From assembly GCA_030390025.1 (NCBI GenBank), contig CM059432.1, positions 73,720,001 through 73,784,000 of the forward strand: a DNA stretch of 64,000 nt, written 5' to 3'. The stretch is from Squalus acanthias (Eukaryota). The position numbers and the translations under genes are program-made. Positions 21,290 to 60,130 of the stretch are shown piece after piece. Numbering within the stretch: position 1 is the stretch's first letter; each line of letters begins with the position of its first letter. The notes under the pieces were generated by a model that saw only the letters and a list, made by a program, of their open reading frames with translations, had not been told where the DNA came from and searched no databases.

Positions 21290-22220
21290 ATGGGTGCTGT
21301 AGTTGTCATCCCCCTTGGTCTGCAGCATGACAGGGAGATGGAGCAGAGGCAGCGAAGAAGAGGACAAGCTGCTCGCAGAGGGAGGAGGAGGAGGGGGAGA
21401 AGGGCTCTGAGCAGACAGCCCTACCCACCTAGGGTCTTCCGAGATAATTCTATTACCTCAGCCTGAGCCAGGAGCAGTGTGTGAGGCATCAGCGCTTTAC
21501 AAAGGACTCTGCCACCTCTTCCAACCAGCCCTGCAGCCTCAGAGATGACAAACACTCTTTATGCCAGGAGAGGGGACTTCATTGACCAGAGAGAAGCAGA
21601 TGGAGCGTGCACATGGCTTTGCCAGGATAGCGGACTTCCCCATGGTGCAGGGCGCCATCGACTGCACACACATGACTTTTCAGGCACCGTATATATATGC
21701 TGAGATGTACCGCAACCACAAAGATTACCACTTGCTGAATGTGCAGTTGGTGTGCGACCATGCTCAGCATATCATGATGGTGAATGGCCAGTATCCTGGC
21801 AGCAGTCATGTTGCTTTTATTCTGCGCCAGACCGCCGTTCCCTCAGTCTTTGAGCCACCAAGACAAACCAGAGGGTGGCTACTGGGCGACAAGGGCTATC
21901 CCTTGACCAGCTGGCTCATGACTCCTCTCCGCAGCCCAACTACACATGGGCAGCATGCGTACAACTAGAGCCATGCTGCCACACAAAACATTATAGAGCA
22001 GACTATTGGCGTCCTTAAACAACGGTTCCGCTGTTTGAATCGCTCTGGAAGACCCCTACAGTTCTCACTGGAGCGTGTGTCCCACTTCGTTATGGTCTGC
22101 GGTATCCTCCACAACCTGGCCATCATGAGGGTACTGCTCTTGTTGCCAGGGATACGGCCACCAGCTCAGCAGGAGGAGGAGGAAGAGAAGGAAGTGGAAG
22201 GAAGGAGGCAACGCAGATAG
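21290..22220 (+). pseudogene. Harbinger DDE transposase (HARBI1-family), disrupted
   Basis: GAIDCTH, LNVQLVCD, LLGDKGY, IEQTIG and ILHNLA motifs. Arg-rich N-terminus. Internal deletion and stops. Confidence 0.92.
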
Positions 22221-26202: not shown

Positions 26203-28416
26203 GGCCTAGAAATTCGGCTACTTACCGCCACCCGTTACCAGCAGATTCCTAAAAAAAATGCCACCATTTTGGTGAGGGCCATAGCGCTGCCGTTAGCAGC
26301 GGTGGCCCTGGACATGCAAATCTGGAGAGCGAGACGCCAGTTATCGCACAACGCCGACTTGATGCCACGTTCTGTGAACTCGGAGCTTCGTGCCGAGCTC
26401 AGCGCTGGGTCCTAAGCTCGCTCTGAAAAGCGAGCGAGCAGCAGGCTGACAGAGACGCTGTCAGCACTTCTTAAAGGGACACACACATCTTTCAGGTAAC
26501 TTTGCATTTAAGCTTTTGGAATGGATTTATTATATTTTATTGAAGTAGAAGCTTGGGCAATAGATGTTAAAAGTTTTTAAGGTGTGCAGGAAGTGCAGGG
26601 AGTGCTGCTGGATGCTTGCAAGGCCTCGTATGGTAAAGGAAAGCCTCTGAGAAGACAGAAAATTCTGGAAATACTCAGCAGGTCAGGCAGCATCTGTGGA
26701 GACAGAAACAGAGTTCATGTCACAGGTCGAGATGCTGCCTGACCAGCTTAGTATTTGCAGCATTTTCTGCTTTTATTTCAGATTTACAGCATCCGCTCGC
26801 AGAGGGATGTGGAAGACGCAGAAGAGGAAGAAGCAGAAGGAGAAGAAGCAGAAGAGGAAGAAGCAGAGGAGGAGGAAGCAGAAGGAAGGATGCAACCCAG
26901 ACAGCCCCTTTCTGGCCGGGACATCCAAGATGGAATCATCTGCCTGTGGTACCAGTGACCACAACCTCAATTCCCCTTTCAACATTTGTCCCACACCTTA
27001 CCTTCCCTCTGTTACTGACCATCACAGTGTCCTCTTGGGCACGATGCTGAAAAAAAAGCCACCACAAAGCAAACTTTCAAATCCAACTTTATACATCTAT
27101 CCATCCAATATGACATCAAGAAATCAACTAATCACCCTTATGCATTCCCTTAGTGACTGTCTTGTGTGTGCCTTTGCCTATCATACTGATGTCATGCAGT
27201 GCTACCCCAGTGGCTGCAGCATTGCTGGTGGAAGGCTGCTGAATTTCAGTGGGGGACACTGCAGATGGCCTTGCTGGTCGACCTCAAGGTGGCTGGGAAT
27301 GTACAATGGACTTCTTTTCTTCTTTCTTCTTCTTCTTCTTGGTCAACCACTGTCTGGGCAGGTTGTATTTCTTGGGTGTGTGAAATGAGGAAGGCACAAG
27401 GCTGGAGTTGTGGTGAGGGGAGGGCAGGAAAGCAAGAGGTGCGTGCGAGAAGGAGGATAATGTATGAGGATACCAGCATCTTGTATCCTTTCTGCCCCGC
27501 CGCAGGCCAAGGGCTCAGCCATGCCTCTGCCATGAATGGCCAGCACCGTCTCCTCTAAGGGGTGAGGTGAAACTAGGAATGGAAGGTGGGCCTCGTGTTT
27601 GGTACAGATTGTTGGTAGGTGAGTGATGTGGGGGCGGAGGGGGGCGGGGAGGCGGCGAAAATGCAATGAGCAGTGTGTGAGGCTAGGGGTGCAGTTGATA
27701 GGAGATGGCTTTTGAAGATGCATTCACTGACCTTGACCACTGGTCTGAGGTCATGAAGCTTCTTTAGGCACTGGAGCCAGGTCATGGGGGCGACACTGCT
27801 GGCAGTGATGGCCTCGGTGATCTGGGCCCACAACCTTCTTTCTGGAGGGCCTCCTGGCCCCTGTGGGTAGAGGACCTCTCTTGCAGTGTTGACCCACTGC
27901 ACAAAGCTGGAGTGATGCGTGCGAGACCCTGAGTTCCTTTCCCTGGCTTGCTGAGTCATTTGTGTTAGTGCTGAAGCACTTTTCCCAGTTTTTGAGGTGC
28001 AGAAGGCAATTCAGCTTTAAGAGCTGAAGACTGTTATTTGGGAATTCTTTTTAGGTTTTTTTTCAGAAAGCTGTTGAGCTGTAAAGGCTAAAACTGCCTA
28101 TTTTTAAATAATTTTAATTTTTTTCATCTTAGAAGGCAGTTCCCCTTTAAGGGACTGACACTGCTTTCCAAAATGACAGCCTTGCTTTAAGAGAAGACTG
28201 TTCTTGCTCCAATGATGATACGGTTACACTACATTGGGCCTCCTGCTGAGACTACTGCCCAAAAACCGGCCTTGCACTGTAAATTTAGCGCTGCACTAAT
28301 GTTTCTTAGCAAGCAGCACCAATATATCGATGCAGCCAGCGCTATTAATTTTGGCGGCCGTTAACTACGGCCTGTGGTGCCACCAGCAGGTTTCCAGTGC
28401 TCTGAATTTCTAGGCC
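26203..28416 (+). mobile_element. Non-autonomous Harbinger with Penelope fold-back (copy 1)
   Basis: TIR ggcctagaaattc / gaatttctaggcc. Transposase reduced to fused N- and C-terminal purine-rich ends. Myb remnant on - (WLQCLKKLHDL). Colinear with 56974-58959. Confidence 0.9.
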
Positions 28417-28418
28417 AA

Positions 28419-31045
28419 GGCCGCGAATTTCAACCCTGTAGCGCCGGTAGTTTTGGCCTTTTAAAAAAAATAATGGCTTCTGCCTCGCTTCGGCCCACTT
28501 CCAGTGCAGCCCGCGCTGTTGCCAGCTTGCTGAAGGCGATAGCGCGGGTGAGATATGTGTGCTCCGGCAGTATGCAGAGTAGACAGATTGTGCCGTCAGT
28601 CAGCGTGTAAAGCTGATTTGAAACATGATCTGCCATTTTTTACGTCACCTCTCCATTCAACGCCCTCTACTAAACACGCACAGCTGAGCGTGCGTTCAGC
28701 TGCACAAGGGACCCCCCATCAGCGCTATTTAAAGGGATACATCCAACTTGCAGGTAAGTTGCTTATTGCTTTTGTACTGCTCTTGCAGAGTTTGTAGGAG
28801 TACTGGGTTGCTGTGAAAGATTTCTAAAGTTGTTAAAGTGTGCAGGGAGTGCTGCTGGACATTGGGAAGGCGTTGGCTGCTACTGGAAGGCCTCCGAGTA
28901 CACCACTTGCTCCCAGTCATGGGGGCTGTAGTTGCAGTTCTCCTTGGGTTACAGCGTGACAGGCAGATGGAGCAGAGGCAGCAAGCAGCTCAAAGAGGGA
29001 GGAGGAGGAGGAGCAGGAGGGCTCTCAGCAGGAGGCCTTACCCACCTAGAGTCTTCAGGGAGCACTTCTCCTAACTGCACCTAAACCAGGAGTGTGTTCA
29101 GCAGCTCTGCTTCACCAAGGAGGTGATCACAGAACTCTGCCACCTCTTGGAACCAGGCCCACTGCCAGTGGCCCTCAAGGTGACCGTGGCCCTCAATTTT
29201 TTCGCCAGCGGATCCTTCCAGGCTAGAGCAGCTGATATAGCAAACATCTCGCAATTCGCCGTCCATCGCTGCACACAGGAGGTCACAGAGGCTCGATACG
29301 CTAGGAGAGGGGACTTTATTGCCTTCTATCTAAACGGAGAGAAGGAGAAGGAGTGCGCACGTGGCTTTGCCAGGATATCGGGCTTCCCCATAGTGCAGGG
29401 CGCCATCAACTGCACACACGTGGCTTTGCAGGCACTGCATCTCAATGGTGAGAGGTTCCGTAACCGCAAAGGGTACCGCTCACTTAATGTGCAGTTGTTG
29501 TGCGACCACGCCCAGCACATCATGATGGTGAATGCCCATTATTCTGGCAGCAGTCATGATGCCTTCATCCTGCACCAGTCCGCTGTGCCAGCAATCTTCC
29601 AGCCAACACATCAAACCCGAGCGTGGCTGCTCGGCGACAAGGGTTATTCACTCTACACTTGGCTGATGACTCCCCTCTGCACTCCCACCACTCGTGGCCT
29701 GCAGTCATATAATGAAAGCCATGATGCCACGAGGAATGTCATCAAGCAGACCATCGGGATGTGGAAGAAACAGTTCCGCTGCCTTGACCGCTCGGGGGGA
29801 GCCCTCCAGTACTTGCCGGAGCAGGTGTCCCAATTCGTGGTGATCTGCTGCATCCTCCACAACTTGGCCATCGCGAGGGCACAGCCCTTGCCACTATGGG
29901 TTCTGTGACCACCTCAGGAGGAGGAGGAGGAGGATGAGGAAGAGGGCGAAGAAGACGAAGAGGAATTGGAGGAGGAGGAGGAGGAAGGCAGCCTGCACAT
30001 CCACGTTTCGGGCGGGCTGTCCGTGAGCGCATCATCAGACTCCGGTTCCCCTAAATGAAACCCCAGATCCCCGTTGTTCAACAATTCCCCAGCTTACCAT
30101 CCCTCTGTCACAGAACATCACAGCGTCCTCTTGGCCACAATGCAGAAATGAAAGCCACCACAAAACAAACATTCCAAACCACATTTATAAACCAATCCAT
30201 CCAATACTACGTAACAAAGTCAACTAATCACCCTTCTGGATTCCCTTAGTGCTTGACTTCCGTGTGACTGTATCATGGTTGGGCCCACAAGTGTGCTAAT
30301 GGAGTTGCCCATCACTTCCAACCTGGAAATCATGGGTTCCAAGCTCTGTGCAAAGGTGATGTGCCTGTCATGGTTGAATAGCTGGCAGTGAGTGCAAGTT
30401 GTGAGATGTGGGTGTGGGGCTTGCAGCAGTGGTAAGTGTGATTGATAGAGATTGTTGGTAGGTGAGTGATGGGGGGGTGGTGCATTGAGCAGTGAATGAG
30501 GCTAGTGGTGCAGTTGGTGAGAGACGGCTTTTGAAGATACATTCACTGACCTTGACCACTCGTGTGAGGTAATTGAACTTCTTCTAGCACTGGATCCAGG
30601 TCCTCGGGGCAAGACTGCTGGTAGTGACTGCTTCGTCTATCTTCTCTGACTGCCTTCTGACTGTGTGCCTGGAGGGCCTCCTGGCCCCCTGTGGGTAGAG
30701 GACCTGTCTCCTACCCCCTGCACTAAGGCCTCTAGTGCTGCGTCCGAGAACCCTGGTGACCTTTCTCTGCCCTGTTGAAGTGTGAGTCACAGTTGCCTTA
30801 ACAAGCATTTCCAGCAGCTGCTGAATGAAGAATGCACCTCACCTTTAAGAGGTGCAGACTGCCTTTAAAAGTGGAGGCTAGCTTTAAATAGAGCTCGCCT
30901 TGCACGAACTTCGGCCCCCTGCTCAGTGCTCAGCTACTCAGCAGTGCACTCGGCGCTGTCTGCACGCATCAATCATGGTATTTAGCAGGTGGCACGAAGA
31001 TCACGGGCCGATCGCTTCCACCCAATGGACAGCTGCCATTTCCAA
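28419..31045 (+). mobile_element. Harbinger derivative: transposase kept, Myb largely deleted
   Basis: Starts ggccgcgaatttc. Myb remnant 30270-30800 (RTWIQC*KKFNYL). Right end not clearly resolved. Confidence 0.8.
28919..29908 (+). pseudogene. Harbinger transposase; 261-aa open segment 29123-29908
   Basis: KVTVALNFFASGSFQ, GAINCTH (D>N), LLGDKGY, VIKQTIG (E>K). Stop at 29072-29074. Confidence 0.93.
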
Positions 31046-39046: not shown

Positions 39047-41303
39047 GGCCTAGAAATTCGGGGGTTTAGCGCAGGCTGTTAAGGCCCTTTTTGAAGAAAA
39101 AATGGTGGCCAACTCGCTTTCCGCGGCTGCCGCCATTTTCAGCAGGTGGGAAGTGCTGCCGTTGCCTGCACTCGCTGCAGAAATGGAAATGAGCCAGAAC
39201 ATGACGTCAATGAGTGTGCAACGCTCACTTGACGCACAATCTGCCATTTTCACCATCACTGCTCCACTTACCACCCTCTCTTAATCACGACAAGCTGACC
39301 AAGCGTTCAGCATCAGGAAGGAGCTCCCAGGAGGGCAATTTAAAGGGATCATCATCAACAACAACTTGCAGTTGACATGGTTTCTCAGTTTGACTGGCTC
39401 TGTGTAACTTTCTGCAACTCTTGTAGCTTTCTAAACTTGCTTAAAGTTCCTGAGGTGACAGGGAGCATTGGTGCAAGTGGAGTACAACTTGATTCTCATT
39501 TAAAGGCTTCTGCTCACAACACTTGCTCACAGTCATGGGGGCTCTACTGGCAGACCTCCTCGCGCTTGAGTATCTTCGGGAGAGGGAGCTGAGGCAGCGA
39601 AGAAGAGGAGAAGATGCTCGCAGAGGAAGGAGGAGGAGGGTCAGGAGGGCTCTCAACAGGAGGCCTTTCCCACCTAGGGTCTTCAGAGAGCACTTCTCTT
39701 ACCTCCACTAAGCGAGGAGCAGTGTATTAGGAGGCTCCACTTCACCAAGGTGATCGTCACAGAACTCTACCACCTCTGGAACCAGTCCTGCAGCCTCAGA
39801 GCAGGGTGACCACGGCTCTCCCAGTGACCATCAAGGTCACCGTGGCCCTCAAATTCTTTGCCAGTGGATCCTTCCAGTCTGCAGCAAGAGACATAGCTAA
39901 CATCTCACAGTTCGCTGTCCATCACTACATCCGGGAGGTCACAGAGGCTCTCTACTCCAGGAGAAGGGACTACATTGTCTTCTCTCTGAAAAGAGAGAAG
40001 CAGGATGAGCATGCATCTGGCTTTGCCAGGATAGTGGGCAACCCCATAGTGCAGGGCACCATTGACTGCACCCACATGGCTTTGCGGGCACAGTATACCA
40101 ATCCTGAGATGTTCCATAACTGCAAAGGCTACCACTCATTTAATGTGCAGTTGTTGTGCGCCAATGTCCAGTGCATCATGACGGTGAATGCTCGCTATCC
40201 TGGCAGCAGTCATGATGCCTTCATCCTACACAGTATGGTATGCCAGCAATCTTCCAGCCACCATGTCAAACCCAAGGATGGCTGATAGGACACAAGGTCT
40301 ATCCACTCTACACCTGGCTGATGACTCCCCTCCGCAACCCCACCACTCGTGCCCAGCACTCATATAAGGACAGCCATGCTGCCACCAGGAACATCATCGA
40401 GCAGACTATTGGGGTGCTAAAGCAACGGTTCCGCTGCCTTGACCGCTCTGGAGGAACCCTCCAATACTTGCTGGAACGGGTGTCCTATTTCGTGGTGGTC
40501 TGCTGCATGCTTCACCACTTGGCCATCATAAGGGCGCAGCCCTTGTCACCAGGGATTGCGGGATGACGGAGGAGGAGGGAGAGGAGGAGGAAGAGGAGGG
40601 AGGGAGGAGCCAGGCAGTCAATCCCCATTCTGGATGGGTTGTCCGTGAGCGCCTCATCAGACTTCGGTTCCAATGAATGAAACCCCAGATCCCCGTTGCT
40701 CACCACATCCCCATCATACCATCCCTCTGTCACGAACATCACAGCGTCCTCCTGGGCACAAAGCTGAAATGAGAAACACCACAAAACACACATTCCAAAC
40801 AAAACTCATAAATTTATCCAAATCCAATCAATCAACTAATCGCCCTTGTGCATTCCTTAGTGCCTGTCGTTCGTGTGCTGCAGTATGGCTGGTGGAAGGC
40901 TGCTGACTTTCAGTGGGGTAGACTATAGGTTCCCTTGCAGAATGACCTTGACCAGCTGTGGACCTAGAAGGCCCGGGTGTAGATTGCATCACCTCGGCTT
41001 GGCGGCAGCAGTCTGGGCTGGCTGGCTGATAGGCAGCGGCAAGGGCACTGGTGGAGTGGCGGTGGTGGGAGTAGGAATGGTGTCATCCTGAGAGAGGACA
41101 GCAGGTTCTTGCTCCACAGACCCACTGCCACTAAGATGAGGAAAGACGGCAGAAGGCTCGAGTGGAGCATAGACACCGGCATGAACTGGTTGAGCCGAAT
41201 GGCCTGTTTCTGTGCCGTATATCCTAGTAATCCTATGTAAACCTATGTAAATAGCGCTGGCCTGTGGCACCGCCCATTTTCGGGCCTAATCCAATTTTTG
41301 CCC
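39047..41303 (+). mobile_element. Harbinger derivative: transposase kept, Myb mostly deleted
   Basis: TIR ggcctagaaattcg / ccaatttttgccc. Host LINE resumes immediately afterwards. Confidence 0.88.
39535..40566 (+). pseudogene. Harbinger transposase, frameshifted
   Basis: KVTVALKFFASGSFQ, GTIDCTH, IGHKVY (D>H), NIIEQTIGVLKQRFRCLDRSGG. Confidence 0.93.
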
Positions 41304-42590
41304 GCCATGTCCCAAGCTAAGCTGTTCCAATACAGCTACAATTACCTAACAATGTGGAAAAATGTCCAAGTATGTCCTGACCACAAAAAGCAAGACAAAT
41401 CAACCTGGTCAATTACCAACCCATCAACCTACTCCCAATCATCAGCAAAATGATGGAAGGAATCATCAATAGAGCTATCAAGCGACACTTACTCACCAAT
41501 AACCTGCTCATCAATGCTCAGTTTGAGTTCCGTCAGGACTACTCGGCTCCAGACCTCATTACAGCCTTGGTCCAAACATAAACACAAGACCTGAATTCTA
41601 GAGTTGAGAGTGACTGCCCTTGACATCAAAGCATCTTTTGACCAAGCATGGCACCAAAGAGCCCTAGTAAAACTAAAGTCAATGGGAAGCAGTGTGGTAA
41701 AATGATTTATTCAATCATTGTAAATCATTGCTTCTCATAATAAAGTTAAATAGCATATCCTCGGACTTAGCATAAGCTCCGGAGGTCTGATAATATACAC
41801 ATATATGCACATTGAAATCAATAGAAAGGAAAATCAGGCAAAGTGTATAACAGACAGGCAATTTGCTCCCACCATTTTGCGCCCTTGCCATAGATTTCAC
41901 CCTCCAGAATATTGCGCTAAGCAGTAAAATAGTAGCCAAATGAAAATGAAGGTCAAGAATAACCTGATACACCATTGTGGAGAAAGACATCTTAGAACCT
42001 GACATCACCTGGGAAGTGGCACAGCAACTAGCCAAAAATAATGGAGTGAAAGAGGCTGCCGTGGGCACTACAAGCCCCACAGAGAGACAGATAATAATTA
42101 CTTTTCTTGAGCATTGATTCCACATATCCACTATTCTGCAAGAAAAAAATCCTTCTGATTTCAAGTCTTGTTTGAGGTTTATTAATTTTATTCCTGCTTT
42201 GGGGGAAACGCAACATAAAGTCGGCAGGGTGGACTTTGCACTGCCACTAACCTAAGTGAATTTTCCAGGGTCAACTTCTTTTGAGTAATTCTGACAGGTG
42301 ACTCTCAAATTTTACTATTTGACCATAGGAGACCCAGGTAAGTTAGATTTTTTTTACCTTTTAAAGGTTCCTTGTGCTCCTCTTGGCTCCACAAGGATAT
42401 CTTGTGCCTCCCTTGCCCCAGGTTTCCTTCCCCCATGATCACAAACTTCCCAGACATCCCCCCCCCCACCCCCCAGCTCCCCATTCCTGACTTCCCTTGC
42501 CGGGGACCTTGGTGGCCTGCAACCCCCACCCCACCCCACCCCCGCCCACACCTGTGAATTTCAACTCCCACCCAACAATGGTGATACAAT

Positions 42591-42633
42591 TCACCTGAGG
42601 AAGGAGCAAATCGATAGCTCCGAAAGCTTGTGA
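42591..42633 (+). ncRNA. Minimal type I hammerhead ribozyme, core intact
   Basis: tcac-CTGAGGA-a-GGAGC-aaatcgata-GCTCC-GAA-AGCT-T-gtga: stem I TCAC/GTGA, 5-bp stem II, palindromic stem III. Confidence 0.8.
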
Positions 42634-42723
42634 TTTCAAATAAAACTGTTGGACTATAACCTGGTGTTGTGCGACCTCTCAATTTTGTCCACCCCAGTCC
42701 AACACCGGCATCTCCGCATCATG
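42591..42723 (+). mobile_element. Second Penelope-type terminal repeat family (short copy)
   Basis: Hammerhead core, AATAAA, then ctgttggactataacctggtgttg...ccagtccaac. Family assignment is inferred from the motif layout. Confidence 0.6.
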
Positions 42724-45328
42724 CAATTCTCACCAGATTTGGGCGAGAGTCAGTATCAGAGCATGTTAATGAGGCCTGGGATTTTAAATCTCCCAGGCCT
42801 CAGGCTCTGGTGAGCTAGATGGATCACGGCCTGCTTTGGATCTTGCACCCGAGTCCTGGTCGGAGTTAAAATCAGGGCTTTAGTTTAACTAACAAGGGGC
42901 AGATTTCTTCTGTTTGCTATCTGGGGCAAAATCACAAGCACATTTATCAAGAACATATTTACGATTTTACTACAAATCGCACCTTTTTATGTTGCTTTTA
43001 AGTGTGTTATAGGGAGACAAGGCAACTGGCATCATGGAAGATGGGCTAACAGAAAATCAGGAACAGGTGAGGTGGACCATCCTAATAGATAAGGACCCCT
43101 CAGAGAAAAGATCAAAGTAATCCTGCAACCCTTCCTGACAGTGGGCAGTGAGTAACTGGAGCGTTTCTTAGATGCTCCAGTTAGATTATGGGGAGCCGGC
43201 CTCATTTGCATTAAAAATGAGCCTAACACACATTCACTGTAAAGGTTCTACACTCCAGCTGCACAGTTGGTGCACATTATGTATAAGCCTCTGTGCCTGA
43301 TAATGCAGGGACCCCCGTATCTGAACCACAGTAGTGCTTTGGGCTCCAAGAATGCCATTATTGACTCCTATGAGTTCCTTGTTTTAGTTGGAGCATTGGG
43401 GGAGCTGCCAAGTGCTTTTGTATTGGGTAGATTATAAATTAAGTTGATAAGTCGCCCTGAGCAACTCTCATGCATCTTTCGAAGACCAAAGGGTCGAATC
43501 TACCATCAGTGAAGTAGTATTACAAATGTGATCCTATCAAATTCCTGGCTCCACTATTTTAATGGAGGCATTAACCCATTTATTTTAAAAAAGCAAAGGG
43601 AGAAATGTAATACAAATGCATTAGGTGCTGGTATGAAAACATCACCAATAGTAATTTCTACCCTTGAATTAATGGATACCCGACAACAATACATGTGCTC
43701 TCTGTTGTGAAAAGATGCCTGAAATGGAGGTAGTTAGTGTCTAGCTACAAAGCAGCGAGAAACAATAGCTAAAATGTTTTTTTTAAGAATGCAATATTGA
43801 AATGTACAGCCTTGATAGTCTCTGTTATAGCATTGACATTTTCTGCTTATGGCATTGAAATAAATTACAACCTGTTATGAATGTGCTGCTGTATAGTTTT
43901 TTTCACTGTTATTACCAGCTAATTATCGTCATTTGCACTGCTTACCTTAATTCTCTATAAAGCCTACAACAAGGTGCATGTGATAGTTTTCCATGCAAGG
44001 TTCAACAGATCTGCTTCTAAATCAAGTCAGATAGCTACATTTCATGGTTCTGTAGTATTTAAAGTCTTTGTTATTTTAATATTTACAAAGCAGTCAGGTG
44101 CTGCACTGTGTAATCTTCACTCTGTATGTTATTAAGTCCTCACAATTCTTTGAATAAAGGTTTAGCTCTTCCATGCACAAACATATTGTGCCATTGTTGT
44201 TCCCATACTGGTTTCTAATATTCTAATATATAGAATTAAGATTTTCTGTATATTTTCCTTGAAAAAGCCACTATAATTACTGACCAAAAGTATTGATACT
44301 AATGGCAAATACAATTGACAAGATTAACCCTTTGCGTGCGGATCGGAGACATTTATTTAATTACACAATGTCAGATAGAATTAATGATATACCAGAGTAC
44401 TACAATCTACTTGATGTAATCTCACAGCTACACAATGTAACTAATGTCATCATTATTATGTGCTATGATTGATGAAATCAGAAGAAACTGTATCCAAAAC
44501 TCTCACAATTGCATTAAGAATCTGACATAAACACACAAGAGATAATCCCATAGTAGAGAATGCCAAATCTGTGCAACTATATAGCATTTCAGAATGAAAA
44601 GCTAAAAGACATTTTATACACCTAATCACAATATGTCAGCAATGTCATAATTGAACCTTTTTTTTTTGCCTGGCTGATTTTTTTTTCTGATGTAATAATA
44701 GTTTCTATTGTAAAAAAAAATCATAGTTGACGACAGATTAGAAATTAACAGGATAATGAGAAACCACTGCATAAAGCCAGCTCAAGACATACTGTGGTAC
44801 AATGCAGAATGGATGACAGGCCTGTCATATTACAATTTAATACTTAATATTATTCACTAGAAGTCAAACAATGATTGCATTCTTTCTGGTAATTCTGATG
44901 CAGCCTGTAAAGTATGTGATATGCTGTAATGATAAAGTAAGAATCTAATTCATGGAGACGAATTGTGGGTTATAAATGCTGTGCTTGCTTGGTGTATGGA
45001 TTTTTAAAATAAGTAATAAACCTTCATCATTTGCTATTTCCTTAGAAAATGGACAATGATTTTAAATGAATGGCTCTGCAGTAGCATGATGGCACATTCA
45101 TAAATCTAACAAATAGGTAGTCTGCTGTATCACACCTGTTGACTAATATGTTAACCTTTTCAAAACCAAGCAATTGGAAGCCACAGTTCTTCTAGGGATA
45201 CACATAAGAAAAAGCAAAATATATGCAGTTCTAAAATTATGACAGCAGGTACACGACGTGCAAAGCCTCTATATCATTCAGCTTGATGGCAGTCATAGAG
45301 TCCATCATCATTTTTAAGTACATAACAT

Positions 45329-47630: not shown

Positions 47631-48796
47631 TTATCTTCACTCATTTACAGCTCAAACAACAGATGACTAACTGAGATTTTTTTTTGAACTTTAGTAGTAA
47701 AAAAACAGCTTCCATATTAACTCTAGATATTTTAAAGCCATATGACATAAACCTGGAAATTTTAACTGTTTTTTGCAAGACAAAAGCGTCGCTATTGTCT
47801 CAGTTAGTAGTAAGCCCAAAGCCCAAAGAGGCACGTAAAGATTACTAAGTCTAAATGTTTGCATAATGTTTACAAATGCACCTGCCAGGCTACACCTGCT
47901 AAGAACAATAATACAGAAATCACTGCCACATGCCCCACAATTTTCCCTCCATAGTAAATGGAAAATCATGGGAAGCATATCTGTAATTTCCCACATTCAG
48001 AAATGTACTGTACACATAAAATTCAGATCTGACTTCAAATGGACTGCCACAAGAGTACTGTTCTATCTCCCCACCAGACTACCAGGATAAGTCGATATGG
48101 ATATATGACCATAACATCAGCTCTTCTCTTCCTACTAAATTATTAAAAAGTTGGACTTGTGTACAAGGCCACATCTCCCTCCCTACTGGAATAATAGGAA
48201 CTAAATTTGCTTCATTCAACCAGCAGCAAACGGAAAAAAAAACCACTGGTTATCAAGAGATAGCAGCCATTTAGTATCTAGGCACTGTGAGGAGAAGTAG
48301 CAGGGGAACTTGTATTGGATATGGAAAGTACCAGCATGAATGTATCGAGGGTACTTTTCCAGAACCATGTTTTTAATAAAGGGACAAGGCATTCAGACCT
48401 AACCTGTGGATAATCTTACAAAAGGCAAAATACTGCAGATACTGGATATCTGAAATATAAACAGAAAATGCTGGAAATACTCAGCAGGTCAGGCAGCATC
48501 TGTGGAGAGAGAAACAAAGTTAACGGCCGCGATTTTCCCATTGGTGGTGGGTTGGGCACGGGTCAGGTGGTCGATGGGTTCCGGTCCCGCCACTGCTTTC
48601 AGCCGGTAAAAATTTGCAATTTTCCCTTAATTGGGCAATTGAGTCCCTGCGTGCGCGCTCCCCTGGCCAATTAGTGGTTTGGGTCTGCAACTCGCCTCTG
48701 CTGACATCTGTGAGGCAGCTGCATTTAAGGGGCCCATGCAGCCTTGTTTCATTCTCTCATTATTTGATGGTGGATTTCGCTCTAACAACTGCTGCC

Positions 48797-50715
48797 ATGA
48801 CTGCTTCAAGGGCCAAGGCCTCTCCCCGATTTGATGACGACTCCCTCCATGCTCTTGTGGAGGGAGTCAGAGGGTGCAAGGAGGTACTCTTCCCATCCTC
48901 TGGGTGGAAGAAGCCTCCACAGCAAACCAAAGCAGCCTGGCTGCAAATTGCTCAGGAGGTCAGCTCCAGATCCATGTGCCCTCGAACCTGGGTGCAGTGC
49001 GGGAAAAGGTTAATTGACCTGGTCTGCTTAGGAAAAGTGAGCATAACATCACACTTATCTCTCTTGTTTACATTGCATGAGTGACTGATATGGCATCTGA
49101 TGCTCATACAGATTGACTTATGATCATCTGCACAATTCCATGTGCCTGCTACGTTAATATCACATGTCTAACTCATGTCTTTAATCCCCCACAGGACCAT
49201 CGACAGCCCCCCTTCCCCACTGTCCAGGAGGAAGAGCCGGAGCCAGAAGACTCCGCAGAGGAACCTGCAACCTCTGAGGGCGCAGCGTCAGCAGAATTAA
49301 GCGCACCCAGCACCAGCGCAGATACGCACACCTCGGTGGGACCTTCGCGACATAGAGTAGTGTTGTCACCTGGTGTATCACAGCTCCCCATCTCCTCTCA
49401 TCACCAGCACTCTGCATTGTCAACCTACTCCTGCACATCCCACTTTACCCTTACATCCCTTGCACCCTTAACCATCCCCCTCTCTCTATGTACAGACTCA
49501 CTCCACCATTCTACTATGCTGCCCTCACACTCGCTATCACTGTTATGCAATGACAACAACTAACAACGCACAGGGAGGGCCCTTGATATTGGCACCTCAC
49601 TCCATCTTTGTCTCCTTCTAAGCATCTATGCTATGGATTCTCTACACTCACTCCATCATTCTCACTCAAACTCCACTTGTGTCCCTCATTACAGGAAAAG
49701 AGAGCCCACAATAAGAGGGAGAGGGCTAAGACAGGAGGAGGGCCATCTTCCATTTCCAATCTCACCAATGCTGAGGAGGCGGCACTGGAAATCATCGGAG
49801 GTGATGAGAATCTGGAAGTGGGGGATGGTCAGACGGGCGCAGCAGAGCAAGCTGGTGACAGAATAGATTTGCATCTCTCTTGTTTACATTGCATGAGTGA
49901 TTGATATGGCATCTGATGCTCATACAGATTGACTTATGATCATCTGCACAATTCCATGTGCCTGCTACGTTAATATCACATGTCTAACTCATGCCTTTAA
50001 TCCCCCACAGGACCATCGACAGCCCCCCTTCCCCACTGTCCAGGAGGAAGAGCCTGAGCCGGAAGACTCCTCAGAGGAAGCTGCAACCTCTGAGGGCGCA
50101 GCGTCAGCAGAATTAAGTGCACCCAGCACCAGCGCAGATACGCACACCTCGGTGGGACCTTCGCGACATAGAGTAGTGTTGTCACCTGGTGTATCACAGC
50201 TCACAAGTGAGCATTAGCAGATGGTGGAGACAGGGACAACAGTGGAGAGTCCTCGTCGGAGGCCGCAGCGCGCTCCCAGCTCTGCTCAGCTGCAAGTGGA
50301 CCCTGTGCCTCCAGGTCCATCCAGAAAGAGAGCGGTGCTGGAACTCCAGCAACAAGCAAGTGGGGTCTCCTCTCCAAGCGCTCACACTCCCATGCCACTG
50401 AGTAGCTCTCGGTCAGAGCCCCACCAGAGTCCTCACCCAACTGAGATGGGCATCTCAGCCCCTGCACAGCCGCAGGAGGAGCAGACTGTTGCCGAGCCCT
50501 CACAGGCTCACAAACCCAGAGGACGCCCAAAGGTGTCGAAGCAGGAGCAGCATGAAAGTGAGCAACGTGCCTCCACATCTGCTGAAGCCACAGGGGAGGC
50601 ACCATGTAGAAGCACGCATAAGAGGAAGATAAAGCACGATGTAGTCACTTGGGTGTTCAGTTCTGTTGTCTTTTGTTGTCTTTATTTTTTGCCATGTCAT
50701 CCTTTTGTGCATTGA
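48797..50715 (+). pseudogene. Harbinger Myb/SANT-like gene: exons 48797-49036, 49695-49854, 50011-
   Basis: PRFDDDSLHALVEGV..AWLQIAQEV..RTWVQCGKR and EKRAHNKRERAKTGGG with GT-AG sites. Frameshift and TAG (50215-50217) in exon 3. Confidence 0.85.
49057..50202 (+). repeat. 330-bp direct duplication (49057-49386 and 49873-50202)
   Basis: Near-identical sequence at offset 816. Confidence 0.95.
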
Positions 50716-51621
50716 TTAAACAGAAGTGATGGCAAACAGTTGAAGTTCTGGCCTATGTGATCTGGGAAATGGAAGTTGCACATTGAGGGCTCAGGGCGAC
50801 TTACATTTGTAATGATGGTGGTCAGAGTGATAGGAACCCACAGGTTCTTGTCCATTGTGTATTATGTGATAAGAAGGTGCCAGCCACAAGTGTTTGATTC
50901 GTCTACCTAAGCGAATCTGGCAAAGATTAGTGCATCCCTTGCATCCCGGGCAGCAATGTGCTCGCGTGCTGCTGCAGCTGGTTCATCCGCCTCCGCAAAG
51001 TCTTCTTCCTCCTCCTCCTCCTCCTCCTCATCTGAGGAGGCTGTGCACTGAGTCACTTGTTCCTCAGGCAGCTGCAAGCCACGATGCTGTGCGATGTTTG
51101 GGAACGGTGTGGAACATGCAGAAAAAGTGGCAAAACCTAAAACCGCTGTCAAAATAGCATTATCCAGGCAGTTAACAAGCTGTTAACTGCATTAAGGGCC
51201 TATCCCTCCGCTTGGAGGCGGGACCGAACAGGAGTCTGGGAGCCCGCATTTGGGAAAGTTGCACGGAGGCGATTTTACCATCTGACCGGCCTCCAAACCC
51301 GCCCTCTGAGCGCCGACAAAATTGCGGCCAACTTTTCAGGTCGATGACCTTTTGTCAGAACTGGAAAATGTTGCAGATGTAATAGGTTTTAAGCAAGTAT
51401 AGGTGCAGGGAAAGGGGGAGAGGAGAGGAAAGAACAAAAGGGAAGGTCTGTGATAGGGTGGAAGGCAAGAGAGATTTAAATGACAAAAGGGATGATGGTG
51501 CAAGGCAAAAGGTAGTGGTAATGGGGCAAGTAAAGAAACAAAAGATGAGTCGAGAGGAGGTGTAAATGGCAAAAGCAGATCCATTACCTGCGCCTGCTGT
51601 CCGAAAAAATGGGCGCAGTGA

Positions 51622-51905: not shown

Positions 51906-51947
51906 CTCTGTGCTTGCTGAAAACCTGTTGCATCTGTAACATTTTCC

Positions 51948-51984
51948 AATTCTGATGAAAGGTCACTGACCTGAAACATTAACT
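51948..51984 (+). ncRNA. Hammerhead motif, slightly decayed
   Basis: aatt-CTGATGA-a-AGGTC-act-GACCT-GAA-ACAT-T-aact. The ACGT palindrome has become ACAT. Confidence 0.55.
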
Positions 51985-53309
51985 TTGTTTCTCTCTCCAC
52001 AGATGCTGTCTGACCTGCTGAGTATTTCCAGCATTTTCTGTTTATATTGTGAATAATCGTTCCTGTTTGCATCAGGTATCCAGATCATCCAAATTATTCT
52101 TCATAGTGTCTATTTGCTTCAGAGCCCTAGCTTTACTTTGGTGAAGAAGAATAGATAACATAAGCCTCTGGACAGCTTTCACTGCCACCATTAAATGTCA
52201 GATATTCAGCATATTTCTGAAATCTTTAATCTCTTTAAAAACATAATGACAGGTACAATCTTGTCACTGCTTTTCAAGCATGTATTGAAAAAGTATGCAC
52301 TACATGCTTCTCTTGATGATAGGGTGCGAGAGCGGAATAAAATCAAAAGCTTGATTGTGGTACAATATTACAATGTACTTCGAGGATAGGATTGGTGAGG
52401 GTTCATCAGACTAGAAAGAAATCACAGCACTGTGAACAGTATGACAATGTGCCTGATTTGGTCTTCCAATCTCCATATCTATGGCTTACAATGGCATTTC
52501 TCTAAAGAGTAAATTTTATTCCTTGAAAAAAGTAATGTGGGGTATTTTGATAATATAAATAGTATTGTACTTCGGCCAATGTCAATGAATTATGAAGGAA
52601 CAATTGCTTAGTTCAGCAGTGACATTTTAGCCATGAAACATCAATGCTGAAGAAACTATAACACATGATAACTCATTACTAAAATGTTTTCTGACAACAA
52701 ACTTGAAAAATTGAACACTGCTTTGAAGTACAATGTAGTCTTGTGCAAATTCCAAAAGAGCTACTTAGTAGAATGAGAATTACCTTGATCCTTTATATAC
52801 CCCTGCTTTTCCTACCATACTCAATCCCCACAAAGAGTTCATCAATTGTTTTTTGTTGATTTTGAGACAACTTCAGAAGCTTTTGAACCTAAGGTTCACT
52901 CCCATATTGAAAGTGAGAGAGGTGAGGGTTAGTTAATTATGATCAGACTCTGTGTTAGCTTTTGGGACACATTATATTGCATATCAGGTTATTGTATGAT
53001 GTCGATAGGACCCCGATGCATTTCATGTGCCTCGCTCTGTAAAACATGGTGGGGAAGAAGCGGAGGCCCTCAAGGTAAGTTAATTTTCCATAGTGGGTCC
53101 AGGAGGCTCATTTGAATTTTTTCAGTCTGCTGCCAGTGGTATATTTGCCTTTGTCTAGGAGCCCGCCTTGGTGGGGAAGGGGGTGGAAGAGGGAGGAGCA
53201 GAAAAATGGATGCAGTAGAGCCACCCATATTAAGGTCAACATATTCTAGGTCCCCTGCCACTTCCACTGGACAATCTCAGAAGTGGTGGGGTCTATGTAA
53301 CTCTAGCAG

Positions 53310-54132: not shown

Positions 54133-55410
54133 ATAAGAACATAAGAAATAGGAGCAGGAGTAGGCCATTCGCCCCTTCGAGCCTGCTGCGCCATTCATAA
54201 GATCATGGCTGATCTTCTACCTCATCTCCACTTTCCTGCACTATCCCCATATCCCTTGATTCCCTTAATATTCAAAAATCTATCAATCTCTGTCTTGAAT
54301 ATACTCAACGACTGAGTCTCCACAGCCCTCAGGGGTAGAGAATTCCAAAGATACACCGCCCTCTGAGTGAACAAATTTCTCCTCATCTCAGTCCTAAATG
54401 GCCGACCCCTTATTCTGAGACTGTGACCCCTGGTTCTAGACTCCCCAGCCAGGGGGAACATCCTCCCTGCATCTACCCTGTCAAGCCCTGTAAGAATTTT
54501 GTATGTTTCAATGAGATCACCTCTCATTCTTCTAAACTCTAGAGAATATAGGCCTAGTCTATTCAATCTCTCTTCATAGGACAATTCCTCCCATCCCAGG
54601 AACCAGTCTGGTGAACCTTCGTTGCACTCCCTCAATGGCAAGTATATCCTTCCTTAGGTAAGGAGACCAAAACTGTACACAATACTCCAGGTGTGGTCTC
54701 ACCAGGGCCCTATATAGTTGCAGTAAGACGTCTTTACTCTTATACTCAAATCCTCTTGTAATAAAGGCCAACATACCATTTGCTTTCCTAATTGCTTGCT
54801 GTACCTGCATGTTAACTTTCAGTGATTTGTGTACAAGGACACCCAGGTCCCTCTGAGCACCAACATTTCCCAATCTCTCTCCATTTAAAAAATACTCTGC
54901 TTTTCTATTTTTCCTACCAAAGTGGATAACTTCACATTTCTCCACATTATATTCCATTTGCCATGTTCTTGCCCACTCACTTAGCCTGTCTATATCCCCT
55001 TGAAGCCTCTTTGCATCCTCCTCATAACTTACATTCCCACCTAGCTTTGTATCATCAGCAAACTTGGATACATTACATTTGGTCCCCTCATCCAAATCAT
55101 TGATGTAGATTGTGAATAGCTGAGGCCCAAGAACTGATTCCTGCGGTACCCCACTAGTTACAGCCTGCCAACCCGAAAATGACCCGTTTATTCCTACTCT
55201 CTGTTTTCTGTCCATTAACCAATCCTCAATCCATGCTAGTATATTACCCCCTATCCCATGAGCCCTAATTTTGTTTAATAACCTCTTGTGTGGCACCTTA
55301 TCGAATGCCTTCTGAAAATCCAAATACACCACATCCACTGGTTCCCCCTTATCTATTCTGTTAGTTACAACCTCAAAAAACTCTAACAGATTTGTCAAAT
55401 ACGATTTCAA
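54133..55410 (-). mobile_element. Young CR1 3' portion (RT nearly intact, one frameshift near 54600)
   Basis: YLDFQKAFDKVPH, SGVPQESVLGP, FADDTKL, YRALVRPHLEY. (cataagaa)n tail. Confidence 0.97.
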
Positions 55411-56088
55411 GCCATGTTTATTGTTAGAAGTGTATACGTCTCTTTTGTCTGAGATTAAGTTAATTCCCTTGCACTCTACTTCAAATGGATAGTTTTGGTT
55501 AATACATTTAGTTCCCCATATAACTTGCAGGATGTGTTATTTATCCTGGAACAGGGATTAACAGGATTCTTCAAATAAACACAGCATGCATGGACTATTC
55601 TGATCAATTTATGGATCTTCTCTGGGCCTAGGATGAAAGATAAGACTATCTGTAGATATTGTACCATATGCTTTCCTCCACTCCCTTTGAGAACGCCTTT
55701 AAATCATAATTTGCTCCTGCTGGCATAAATCTCAAGGTCATCACACTGCGCTTTGAGTTCCTTAAGCTTTCCCTAAAGACTAACAATGCACTCTGTAAGC
55801 ATTTTAATATAATAAATCTGCCTTCTTCAATTTGATTTTCTATTGCCACATGGTTTGATGTGAGACTATTGAAGCTTTTGTGTATGGAATCTATCTTTAA
55901 TGAGACACAATAGCTCAAAGCTCAGTTAGGTTGGAACTGTCACCATCAAGGGAAGAGGGAACGTGTTTTCATTCTTTTGTTATCATAGCATTATCTTGAG
56001 TTATTGATTTTCACCCAGGTTATGGTGATTGGGCATCGTCTCACCCTTGTTTTGTAATAATTTGTTTTGTACTCAAGTTTGACAGAGG

Positions 56089-58990
56089 CATAAGAACATA
56101 AGAATTACGAGCAGGAGTAGGCCATACGGCCCCTCGAGCCTGCTCCGCCATTCAATAAGATCATGGCTGATCTTTGACCTCAACTCTACTTTCCTGCCTG
56201 ATACCCATATCCCTTGATTCCCCAAGAGTCAAAAAAATCTATCTAGCTCAGCCTTGAATATACTCAATGACTCAGCTTCCACAGCCCTTTGGGGTAGAGA
56301 ATTCCAAAGATTCACAACCCTCTGAGTGAAGAAATTCCTCCTCATCTCAGTCTTAAATGTCAAACCCCTTATCCTGAGACTATGCTCCCTAGTTCTAGAC
56401 TCTCCAGCCAGGGGAAACAACCTCTCAGCATCTACCCCATCAATCCCCCTCAGAATCTTATATGTTTCAATGAAATCACCTCTCATTCTTCTAAACTCCA
56501 GAGAGTATAGGCCCAATCTACTCAATCTCTCCTCATAGGACAACCCTCTCATCCCAAGAATCAACCTAGTGAACCTTTGTTGTACCGCCTCTAAGGCAAG
56601 TATATCCATCCTCAGTTAAGGAGACCAAAAATGAGCACAGTACTCCAGGTGTGGTCTCACCAAAGTCCTGTACAATTGTAGCAAGACTTCCTTACTCTTT
56701 TACTCCAATTCCCTTGCAATAAAGGCCAAAATGCCATTTGCCTTACTAATTGCTTGCTGTACCTGCATGCTAACTCTCTGTGTTGACTGTACGAGGACAC
56801 CTAAATCTCTCTGAACACCAACATTTAATAGTTTGTCACCATTTAAAATATATTCTGTTTTTCTATTCTTCCTACCAAAGTGAATAACCTCACATTTCCC
56901 CACATTATACTCCATCTGCCACCTCCATATTACCCACTCACTTAACTTGTCTATATCCCTTTTCAGGCTCTTTGGCCCTGAAATTGGACTACTTACCGCC
57001 ACCCTTTTGCGCCACAATCATGGAAAAAATGGCGGCTTCCGCTCTAGCACCCGCCTCTGGCGCAGGACACGGAGGATGCCATTTTGGAGATGAGCCTTAG
57101 GCAGCGCTGGCCCTGGACATGCAAATATGGAGAGCATGACGTCAGTAGGCATGCAACGTGCAACGCCGACTTAACGTCATGCTCTGCGAATTTGGACCTT
57201 TGTGCTGAGTTTAGTGCTGGGTCCTAAGCTCGCTCTGAAAAGTGAGCGAGCAGCAGACCGACAGAGATGCTGTCAACACTTCTTAAAGGGATGCACACAT
57301 CTTTCAGGTAATTTTGCATTTAAGCTTTTGGACTGGATTTTTTATATATTATTGAAGTAGTGGCTTGGTGCAATACATGTTAAAAGTTTTTTCAGTGTGC
57401 AGGGAGTGCTACTGGATGCTTGCAAGGCCTCAGTTGGTAAAGGAAGGCCTCTGGGAAGACAGAAAATGCTGCAAATAATCAGCAGGTAAGGCAGCATCCG
57501 TGGAGAGAGAAACAGAGTTCACATCTCAATTTAGATGCTGCCTGACCTGCTGAGTATTTCCAGAATTTTATGCTTTTATTTCAGATTTACAGCATCTGTT
57601 TGCAGAGGGAAGAGGACGAAGCAGAAGAGAAGGAAGCAGAAGGAAGGATGCAACACAGACAGCCCCTTTCTGGCTGGGATATCCGGGATGGAATCATCTG
57701 CCTGCGGTACCAGTGACCACAACCCCAATTCCCCTTTCAACATTTGTCCCACACCTTACCTTCCCTCTGTTACTGACCATCACAGTGTCCTCTTGGCCAC
57801 AATGCTGAAATAAAAGCCACCACAAAGCAAACTTTCCAATCCAACTTTATACATCTATTCATCCAATATGACATCAAGAAATCAACTCATCGCCCTTATG
57901 CATTCCCTTAGTGACTGTCTTGTGTATGCCTTTGCCTATCCTACTGATGTCACGCAGTGCTACCCCAGTATGACTGGTGGAAGGCTGCTGACTTTCAGTG
58001 GGGGGACACTGCAAATGGTCTTGCTGGTCGACCTTGAGGAGCTAGTGGCTGGGAGTGTCAAATCGAGCGACGGTGTTTCTTCTTCTTCTTCACTCTCCTC
58101 TCCCTCTTCTTGGTCAACCACTGGCTGGGCAGGCTGCATTTCTTGGGTGTGTGAAATGAGGAAGGTACAAGGGTGGAGTTGTGGTGAGGGGAGAGTGGTA
58201 AAGCAAGAGGTGCATGCGAGAAGGAGGACAATGTATGAAGATACCAGCATCTTGGCTCAGCCATGCCCCTGCCAAGAATGGCCAACACCATCTCCTCCAA
58301 GGGGGTGAGGTGAAGCTAGGAATGGGAGGTTTGCCTCGTGTTTGGTACAGATTGTTGACAGGTGAGTGATTGGCGGGGGGTGTCGTGCATTGAGAAGTGT
58401 ATGAGGCTAGTGGTGCAGTTGGTAAGAGACGGCTTTTGAAGATGTATTCACTGACCTTGACCAGTGGTCTGAGGTCATGAAGCTTCTTTGGGCACTAGAG
58501 CCAGGTTGTGGGGGCAACACTGCTGGCAATGATGGCCTCGGTGATCTGGTCCCACATTCTTCTTTCTGGAGGGCCCCTGGCCCCTGTGGGTAGAGGACCT
58601 CTCTTGCAGTGTTGACCCCCTGCACAAAGCTGGAGTGCTGAGTGCGAGACACTGGGTGCCCCTTCCCTGGCTTGCTGAGCCATTTGAGGTTCCCCTTTAA
58701 GGGATCACACTGCTTTCTAAAATGACAACCTTGCTTTAAGAGAAGAGTGTTCTTGCTGCAATGTCGCTACGGCCGCATCCATTGGGCCTCCTGCTGAGAC
58801 AACCGCCATGAAATCGGCCTTGCAAGGTATGTTTAGCGCTGGGCTAATATTAATTAGCAACCAGCACCAATATCCCGGTCTTGCCAGTGCCATTAATTTT
58901 GGTGGCCGTTAACTCCAGCCCATGGTGGCAAGTTTTTAGCGCTCTCCAATTTTTAGCCCTTTGTGTTCTCCTCACAGCTTACTTTCCCAT
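56089..58990 (-). mobile_element. CR1 3' portion split by Harbinger 56974-58959
   Basis: RT C-terminal ORFs 56229-56609 and 56700-56970. About 30 bp of CR1 resumes after 58959. Confidence 0.93.
56974..58959 (+). mobile_element. Non-autonomous Harbinger with Penelope fold-back (copy 2)
   Basis: TIR ggccctgaaattgga / tccaatttttagccc with TTT TSD. Colinear with 26203-28416. Confidence 0.92.
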
Positions 58991-59945: not shown

Positions 59946-60130
59946 TAAAATAAAAACAGAAAATGCTGGAAATACTCAGTAGGTCAGGCAGTATCTGTGG
60001 AGAGTGAAACAGAGTTAACCTTTCACGTCGATGACCTTTTGTCAGAACTGGAAAAGTTAGAGATGTAATAGGTTTTAAGCAAGTACAGAGGCAGGGAAAG
60101 GGGGGTGGGGAGGAAAGAACAAAAGGGCAG
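59946..60130 (-). mobile_element. Penelope pLTR fragment with decayed hammerhead
   Basis: Same repeat as 1411-1600. Core reads CTGACAA. Confidence 0.75.

Follow-up and report, generated by a model that had tools for sequence, protein, structure and literature searches.

Penelope-like elements (PLEs) carry minimal type I hammerhead ribozymes (min-HHRs), characterized by an additional nucleotide separating position 9 from 10.1, a G10.1–C11.1 pair and a palindrome at positions 15.2–16.2 (Cervera and De la Pena 2014, PMC4209133). According to that account, most min-HHRs are single dispersed motifs from truncated PLEs, with monomers that are inactive and dimers that are weakly active. PAc, a Poseidon-clade PLE of Anolis carolinensis, starts reverse transcription in an AC-rich stem-loop 111–118 nt into its ORF, and its hammerhead cut lies at 26 nt (Frangieh et al. 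2024, PMC11167929). The hammerhead of PAc is described there as inactive without protein and dispensable for insertion in vitro, and the RNA-seq data reported for it contain no reads ending at the cut. For the EN+ Penelope of Adineta vaga, target-site duplications of 8, 9 and 10 bp and an optional tail of 31 bp are given (Arkhipova et al. 2013, PMC3846280). PLE tails are elsewhere put at 30–40 bp (PMC8557442), and 5′ truncation, inverted copies and tails are described among PLE traits (PMC8557442, PMC8969392).

The locus studied here lies in a 64-kb window, the whole stretch of DNA that was analyzed, and carries a hammerhead of this minimal kind within a short insertion. With a probability that we put at about 85%, it represents a Penelope-like retrotransposon's 3′ end, comprising the pLTR hammerhead and a tail, and present as a young, solitary and heavily 5′-truncated insert.

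Layout and significance of the hammerhead motif

Reading of the sequence places a complete minimal type I hammerhead at 42591–42633 on the + strand. Its parts are given below, together with those of the surrounding insertion; stems I and II appear both in the sequence and in the predicted fold, and the other hammerhead parts are read from the sequence.

42584–42592, + strand: left copy of the target-site duplication, 7 bp at minimum (42584–42590) and up to 9 bp, with one mismatch at 42586
42591–42720, + strand: inserted unit of 130 bp, holding the hammerhead, AATAAA, a 3′ hairpin and a tail
42591–42594, + strand: 5′ arm of stem I, pairing with 42630–42633
42595–42601, + strand: catalytic core C3–A9, CUGANGA, with G at N7 in the window copy
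42602, + strand: additional unpaired A separating position 9 from 10.1
42603–42607 and 42617–42621, + strand: stem II, 5 Watson–Crick bp
42608–42616, + strand: loop II, 9 nt, holding a 6-nt palindrome at 42610–42615
42622–42625, + strand: GAAA
42622–42629, + strand: G12–A15.1, the 4-nt palindrome in the place of helix III, and U16.1–U17
42625–42628, + strand: palindrome AGCT, a substitute for helix III, with no stable helix III
42630–42633, + strand: 3′ arm of stem I
42639–42644, + strand: AATAAA, within an AU-rich stretch 3′ of the hammerhead
about 42647–42705, + strand: predicted 3′ hairpin, fold energy −16.2 kcal/mol
to 42723, + strand: AC-rich tail after the hairpin, A or C at 25 of its last 35 letters
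42721–42729, + strand: right copy of the target-site duplication, matching the empty allele; its first 2–3 letters coincide with the family 3′ end (microhomology)

The G10.1–C11.1 pair corresponds to G42603–C42621, and the CUU triplet predicts a cut after 42629. AATAAA may possibly serve as a polyadenylation signal. Under each of three descriptors of graded stringency, 42591–42633 is the sole match in the window. Among 300 dinucleotide-shuffled windows, 4 contain a match to the relaxed descriptor, 3 to the middle one and none to the strict one; because no shuffled window satisfies the strict descriptor, the motif is real and not a product of chance. The predicted monomer fold contains both stem I and stem II, and the fold energy of the 43-mer is ordinary relative to shuffles (z −1.32). 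Rfam returned no hammerhead at gathering score across the whole window, and at E ≤ 10 its 7 matches in 42300–42900 included none. We do not count this as a refutation, because minimal motifs of this kind lack helix III. The sequence-only reading had called an intact minimal hammerhead with every conserved nucleotide in place, which these results bear out. The layout it described, with stems I and II, AGCT, CUU and AATAAA, likewise stands, except that it left out the extra unpaired A at 42602.

Compared with the min-HHR consensus of Fig. S3 in PMC4209133, the window copy has the same core and layout, a palindrome standing in for helix III, a short stem I and an AU-rich flank. In the turtle and Philodina rows of that figure the letters from GAAA to the cut are identical to ours, and in the lamprey Poseidon row stem I is identical. 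The 5-bp stem II falls inside the published range, and cartilaginous fish are absent from the 56 min-HHR rows in that source. By its sequence, the motif is a member of the PLE min-HHRs; membership of the element as a whole in the PLEs rests on structural traits.

The insertion, its repeat family and its setting

Contigs from 4 of 20 public sequencing runs were aligned to 42200–43100 at 80% likeness. Run X5 derives from another sample of the source organism (organism A), X6 and X8 derive from its relatives organism B and organism C, and the fourth run is X16. In all 4 runs contigs pile onto the unit at 42591–42720. In three of them (X5, X6 and X8), one contig each joins 42583 directly to 42721, skipping 137 bases, and thereby displays an empty site. 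This joint was initially read as carrying a 2-bp duplication, a reading displaced by the match between 42584–42592 and 42721–42729, in which 8 of 9 letters are alike at an offset of 137; only 7 of 63,854 window positions reach this level. From the 137-base skip and the 8-of-9 match, the insert consists of the 130-bp unit (137 skipped bases minus the 7-bp duplication) and a 7–9-bp duplication. The target site is A/T-rich, and the duplicated sequence occurs once in the empty allele. The last letters of the left duplication copy also belong to the element's 5′ end, and the family sequence shares 1–3 letters with each junction. Because the site is empty in the other sample of the source organism, the insertion is recent, with polymorphism probable, each empty-site contig showing a single allele only.

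The ends of the insert lie 39 nt before and 91–94 nt after the cleavage site. The copy is solitary, with no second copy of the unit within the 64-kb window and no tandem array at the locus, and no terminal inverted repeat was found at the unit. The whole-unit fold is no better than that of shuffles (z −1.09). The unit contains no ATG-started frame after the core and no start codon at stem II. Outside the unit, 42770–42802 and 42355–42420 are moderately repeated (summed depth in X5 of 800–1900 vs 12.8), and the former is a 33-bp imperfect palindrome.

Our view of the family comes from contig summary tables and not from aligned copies. The ratio of peak summed contig depth to empty-site depth is 4.5e5 in X5, 2.1e5 in X6 and 9.0e4 in X8, or 1.5e4, 6.7e3 and 2.9e3, respectively, when divided by 31 for contig overlap. 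Summed contig depth is not copy number; the family holds thousands to hundreds of thousands of copies, with thousands or more as the safe statement. The short 130-bp repeat unit proposed from sequence thus finds its counterpart both in the skip at the empty site and in the contig pile-up of all 4 runs. A fall in depth at both unit ends was considered as a sign of truncation and set aside, since end effects and loop II mismatch confound it.

The family has a well-defined 3′ boundary. Loose ends accumulate behind 42722 and 42723 in every run (68 + 112 in X5, 27 + 31 in X6, 33 + 30 in X8 and 19 + 21 in X16), and the 3′ flanks beyond these positions are unrelated between contigs (agreement 0.37–0.43). 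These ends lie within the AC-rich tail, 91–94 nt past the cleavage site. Minor ends occur at 42679, 42691 and 42715 among the rows listed. The end at 42691, the second of X5 with 18 loose ends, precedes the main end by 31–32 nt, a spacing that resembles the 31-bp optional tail described for Adineta vaga (PMC3846280) and the 30–40-bp tails of PMC8557442. The extra end at 42679 is seen in organism B (12 loose ends in X6) and organism C (17 in X8). Beyond it the letters coincide in part (agreement about 0.5), and it perhaps reflects a different tail or a subfamily in these two organisms.

On the 5′ side, the sequence upstream of 42590 is common to 7 contigs of X16 (agreement 0.93), which means that family members reach beyond the 5′ limit of the window copy. 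Among the rows listed, no pile of 5′ ends occurs at the cut site or at 42586–42591. Opposite-strand joints are present at 42590/42624 (X5) and 42617/42687 (X16), at least two among the rows listed. One X5 loose end lies before 42593, and its consensus begins as 42683–42700 in reverse complement (4 contigs, median 14 letters, the far letters resting on few). Inverted neighbors are therefore found elsewhere in the family and not at the window locus, with at least two joints and at least two loose-end rows of few contigs each.

Within the hammerhead, the core and the stem II 5′ arm are retained in the best-supported consensus before 42617 (X5, X6 and X8), where N7 is C and loop II has 3 nt. Among the 40 rows listed, other letters appear in none at 42591–42633 vs five at 42672–42683, divergent copies being clipped in the alignment. 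The X16 consensus before 42616 departs from the CUGA core (11 contigs, agreement 0.62). The long loop II is abundant only in organism A, with a depth at 42608 of 631250 in X5, 240.8 in X6 and 17.3 in X8; the 9-nt loop II of the window copy identifies a subfamily that is plentiful in this organism alone. Contigs of X16 carry the family and give no cover on the unique flanks of the window locus; that X16 is an RNA run is a guess, and the flank result is neutral on transcription of the locus.

Exact-pattern scans for homologues returned none from viral sequences, metagenomes or prokaryote genomes. Eight metagenome loci found with a second pattern were rejected as chance, since the match stops at 19–26 letters and the contigs are GC-rich. 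Titles and abstract openings in the literature gave no description of this family in sharks; Lunse et al., a supplement file of PMC4209133 and the tables of a preprint on vertebrate retrozymes may include it, and Repbase and Dfam lay outside the search.

The window itself is rich in mobile-element debris. It contains 41 ORFs of at least 120 aa, and the 11 that were scanned comprise one RVT_1, three DDE_Tnp_4, one Myb/SANT-like, one GDSL-like and five without family. The DDE_Tnp_4 fragments and the Myb/SANT-like ORF, at 21549–21968, 29075–29908, 39731–40285 and 48524–49084, represent several diverged copies of a two-gene layout that we take to be that of PIF/Harbinger elements. An RVT_1 fragment and a GDSL-like ORF at 54574–55536 (−) and 5718–6185 (−) are presumably pieces of ORF2 and ORF1 of a CR1-type LINE.

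A second repeat family with a minimal-hammerhead-like motif also occurs in the window, at 1444–1640 (−), 51907–52048 (+), 59947–60100 (−), 51330–51414 (−) and 48421–48525 (−), with cores at 1540 (−), 51952 (+) and 60045 (−). Its copies are 83–92% alike and altered in core, stem II or palindrome, and none satisfies any of the three descriptors. The 130-bp unit shows no similarity to it (best E 0.83). This second family is probably another PLE 3′ end. Two of its sites consist of back-to-back inverted pieces (26652–26796 and 57456–57596), the kind of fold-back arrangement that PLE insertions typically show, and both sit in a larger, 82%-identical duplicated segment (26296–27962 / 57101–58686).

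Origin of the 130-bp unit

The case for a truncated PLE 3′ end draws on several traits. The hammerhead fits the min-HHR consensus in its extra nucleotide at 9/10.1, its G10.1–C11.1 pair, its palindrome at 15.2–16.2 and its AU-rich 3′ flank. In all 4 runs the family has a fixed 3′ end with an optional tail, its end piles falling at 42722/42723; the insertion occupies an A/T-rich site and is flanked by a short target-site duplication, and the family includes inverted copies. On the other side, the left duplication copy contains one mismatch. No PLE reverse transcriptase or GIY-YIG ORF is present among the 11 window ORFs scanned of the 41 listed, a simple six-frame motif scan of the window gave no match to either, and the unit itself holds no ORF.

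These traits can be set against two described elements. The distance from cut to 3′ end is 91–94 nt in the window family vs 85–92 nt computed for PAc (PMC11167929). Both also have a tail delimited by two end positions, targets rich in A/T and insertion from uncut RNA, but unlike PAc as described, the window copy has no start codon at stem II and no linked ORF. The likeness to Adineta vaga Penelope (PMC3846280) covers the 8–10-bp duplications, inverted pLTR neighbors, solo pLTRs and the use of an empty allelic site as proof of insertion; Penelope is low-copy there with pLTRs of 181–218 bp, whereas the present family is very abundant and the window copy is far shorter, at 130 bp. The sequence-only reading had assigned the motif to the PLE-type minimal type I hammerheads and to a dispersed family, which the consensus fit and the contig pile-up support, no second copy occurring in the window. 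Its proposal of solo pLTRs is refined: since the copy arrived as a new insertion, marked by a duplication and by an empty allele, a truncated 3′ end accounts for it better than a solo pLTR left by recombination.

Three other origins were weighed. The unit could belong to a SINE-like non-autonomous family that arose from a PLE pLTR, produces a separate transcript, has a defined 5′ end and is mobilized in trans by PLE protein. Very high abundance, a short unit beginning right at stem I and the expansion of the long-loop II subfamily in one organism only would all suit such a family, and pLTR sequences alone are described as integrable in trans (PMC3846280). We nevertheless regard it as unlikely. 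The window contains no tRNA genes. A search with Pol III A and B box patterns found the two boxes nowhere paired in the window and, around the unit, lone one-mismatch matches only. The family continues 5′ of the window copy in 7 X16 contigs, and the DNA rows listed lack a pile-up of 5′ ends at 42586–42591. A non-LTR retrozyme monomer, cut from tandem copies by the hammerhead, circularized and re-inserted, carries even less probability. It would explain a type I hammerhead within a short non-coding repeat, and a recent preprint describes vertebrate retrozymes and solo monomers, including one chondrichthyan, with consensus lengths from 51 bp, and derives retrozymes from pLTRs (bioRxiv 10.64898/2026.07.22.740005); cleavage is given there for 1 of 9 dimers assayed. 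The locus has no tandem, although contigs collapse repeats and arrays elsewhere are possible. The ends at 42722/42723 enter unrelated flanks, the rows listed contain no head-to-tail joint from 3′ to 5′ end, and the unit ends away from the cleavage site. Tandem retrozymes are moreover tied to canonical type I motifs in PMC7229834, whereas the present core is minimal, and 130 bp is shorter than the 150–450 bp given in that source.

The window copy therefore differs from metazoan retrozymes as described in PMC7229834 and bioRxiv 10.64898/2026.07.22.740005 in being non-tandem, in having no canonical helix III and in having ends not set by the cut. The retrozyme-like origin offered by the sequence-only reading is not supported, given the solitary state of the copy, its short unit, its lack of canonical helix III and its ends off the cleavage site, and the tandem dimers that the reading suggested counting are found neither at the locus nor as a head-to-tail joint among the rows listed. 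That the motif arose by chance, or is the end of another element such as a DIRS or MITE that resembles a hammerhead, has a close to negligible probability. The absence of an Rfam match and a fold energy no better than shuffles are compatible with it, but none of the 300 shuffles satisfies the strict descriptor, the G10.1–C11.1 pair fits even though it lies outside the descriptor, and variation in the best-supported family consensus is confined to N7 and loop II. DIRS elements are described as lacking duplications (PMC8969392), whereas the insert has one, and a terminal inverted repeat is missing from the unit.

For a truncated PLE 3′ end, the following course of insertion can be proposed. A PLE RNA reading through the pLTR would be bound by a putative PLE protein with reverse transcriptase and GIY-YIG domains. 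Its presumed endonuclease would nick the A/T-rich site with a stagger, yielding the 7–9-bp duplication that is seen beside the empty site. Reverse transcription would start inside the RNA at the fixed AC-rich spot, 91–94 nt past the cut, where the family ends lie; by analogy with PAc, the start may be aided by 2–3 matching letters. Synthesis would then cross the uncut scissile bond, which the copy spans, and probably halt at the 5′ arm of stem I, and the 5′ end would be joined to the target by short microhomology. Because the copy spans the scissile bond, its template was uncut at 42629/42630, or rejoined. The hammerhead would be inherited cargo, with its role lying in the tandem RNA of the parent element.

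Loop II and the parent element

In the parent element, by analogy with described PLEs, the hammerhead probably trims tandem transcripts, either as a dimer via the 4-nt palindrome or with protein help. Unless helix III is provided by a second copy or by PLE protein, the predicted hammerhead at the solitary locus probably has no activity.

A further route to dimerization could lie in loop II. Its 6-nt palindrome at 42610–42615 is preceded by two A and followed by one A, and thus has flanking unpaired purines. The layout of a retroviral DIS loop is exactly 2+6+1. A DIS loop is likewise described as a palindrome with flanking purines (PMC5874298). The window palindrome is not GC-rich with at most one A–U pair, since 4 of its 6 pairs are A–U, and DIS mutants with more than one A–U pair replicate poorly according to the same source. 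By eye, the 6-nt palindrome has no counterpart in the 56 published loops of PMC4209133, many of which are shorter than 6 nt.

In a two-strand fold, a model that ignores tertiary contacts, a stem II duplex reaches −31.7 kcal/mol vs −22.6 for two monomers and −20.1 for a double hammerhead, and under the same model the inter-strand A15.1–U16.1 pair has probability 0.0. Some 6-nt palindrome occurs in 96 of 1512 permutations of the loop and takes the native position in 24 of these; 39 permutations beat or equal the native loop in the two-strand fold. The long loop accounts for about 11% of peak depth in X5 vs 0.016% and 0.001% in the relatives, and at the palindrome 1 or 5 letters are missing from other long-loop copies. 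The palindrome signal is weak and was noticed post hoc, and titles and abstract openings in the literature mention no kissing loops in PLE hammerheads. It is quite improbable that the source-organism subfamily gained a DIS-like loop II that pairs two PLE RNAs, through a kissing loop leading to a stem II duplex, as a second dimerization handle controlling cleavage. If this were true, the loop would either chain RNAs for an intermolecular helix III or trap them uncut and so supply more full templates, and loop dimerization might explain the expansion of the subfamily.

Elements of this kind have been known since 2014, and the present locus changes little in that picture. As a truncated PLE 3′ end, it provides a clean specimen of an insertion present or absent within a species, with an empty allele and a duplication. 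It shows insertion from RNA with the hammerhead left uncut, which agrees with what was found for PAc. The locus could serve as a population marker and as a natural substrate for studying whether loop II variants tune dimer cleavage. The insertion indicates recent PLE activity in this lineage.
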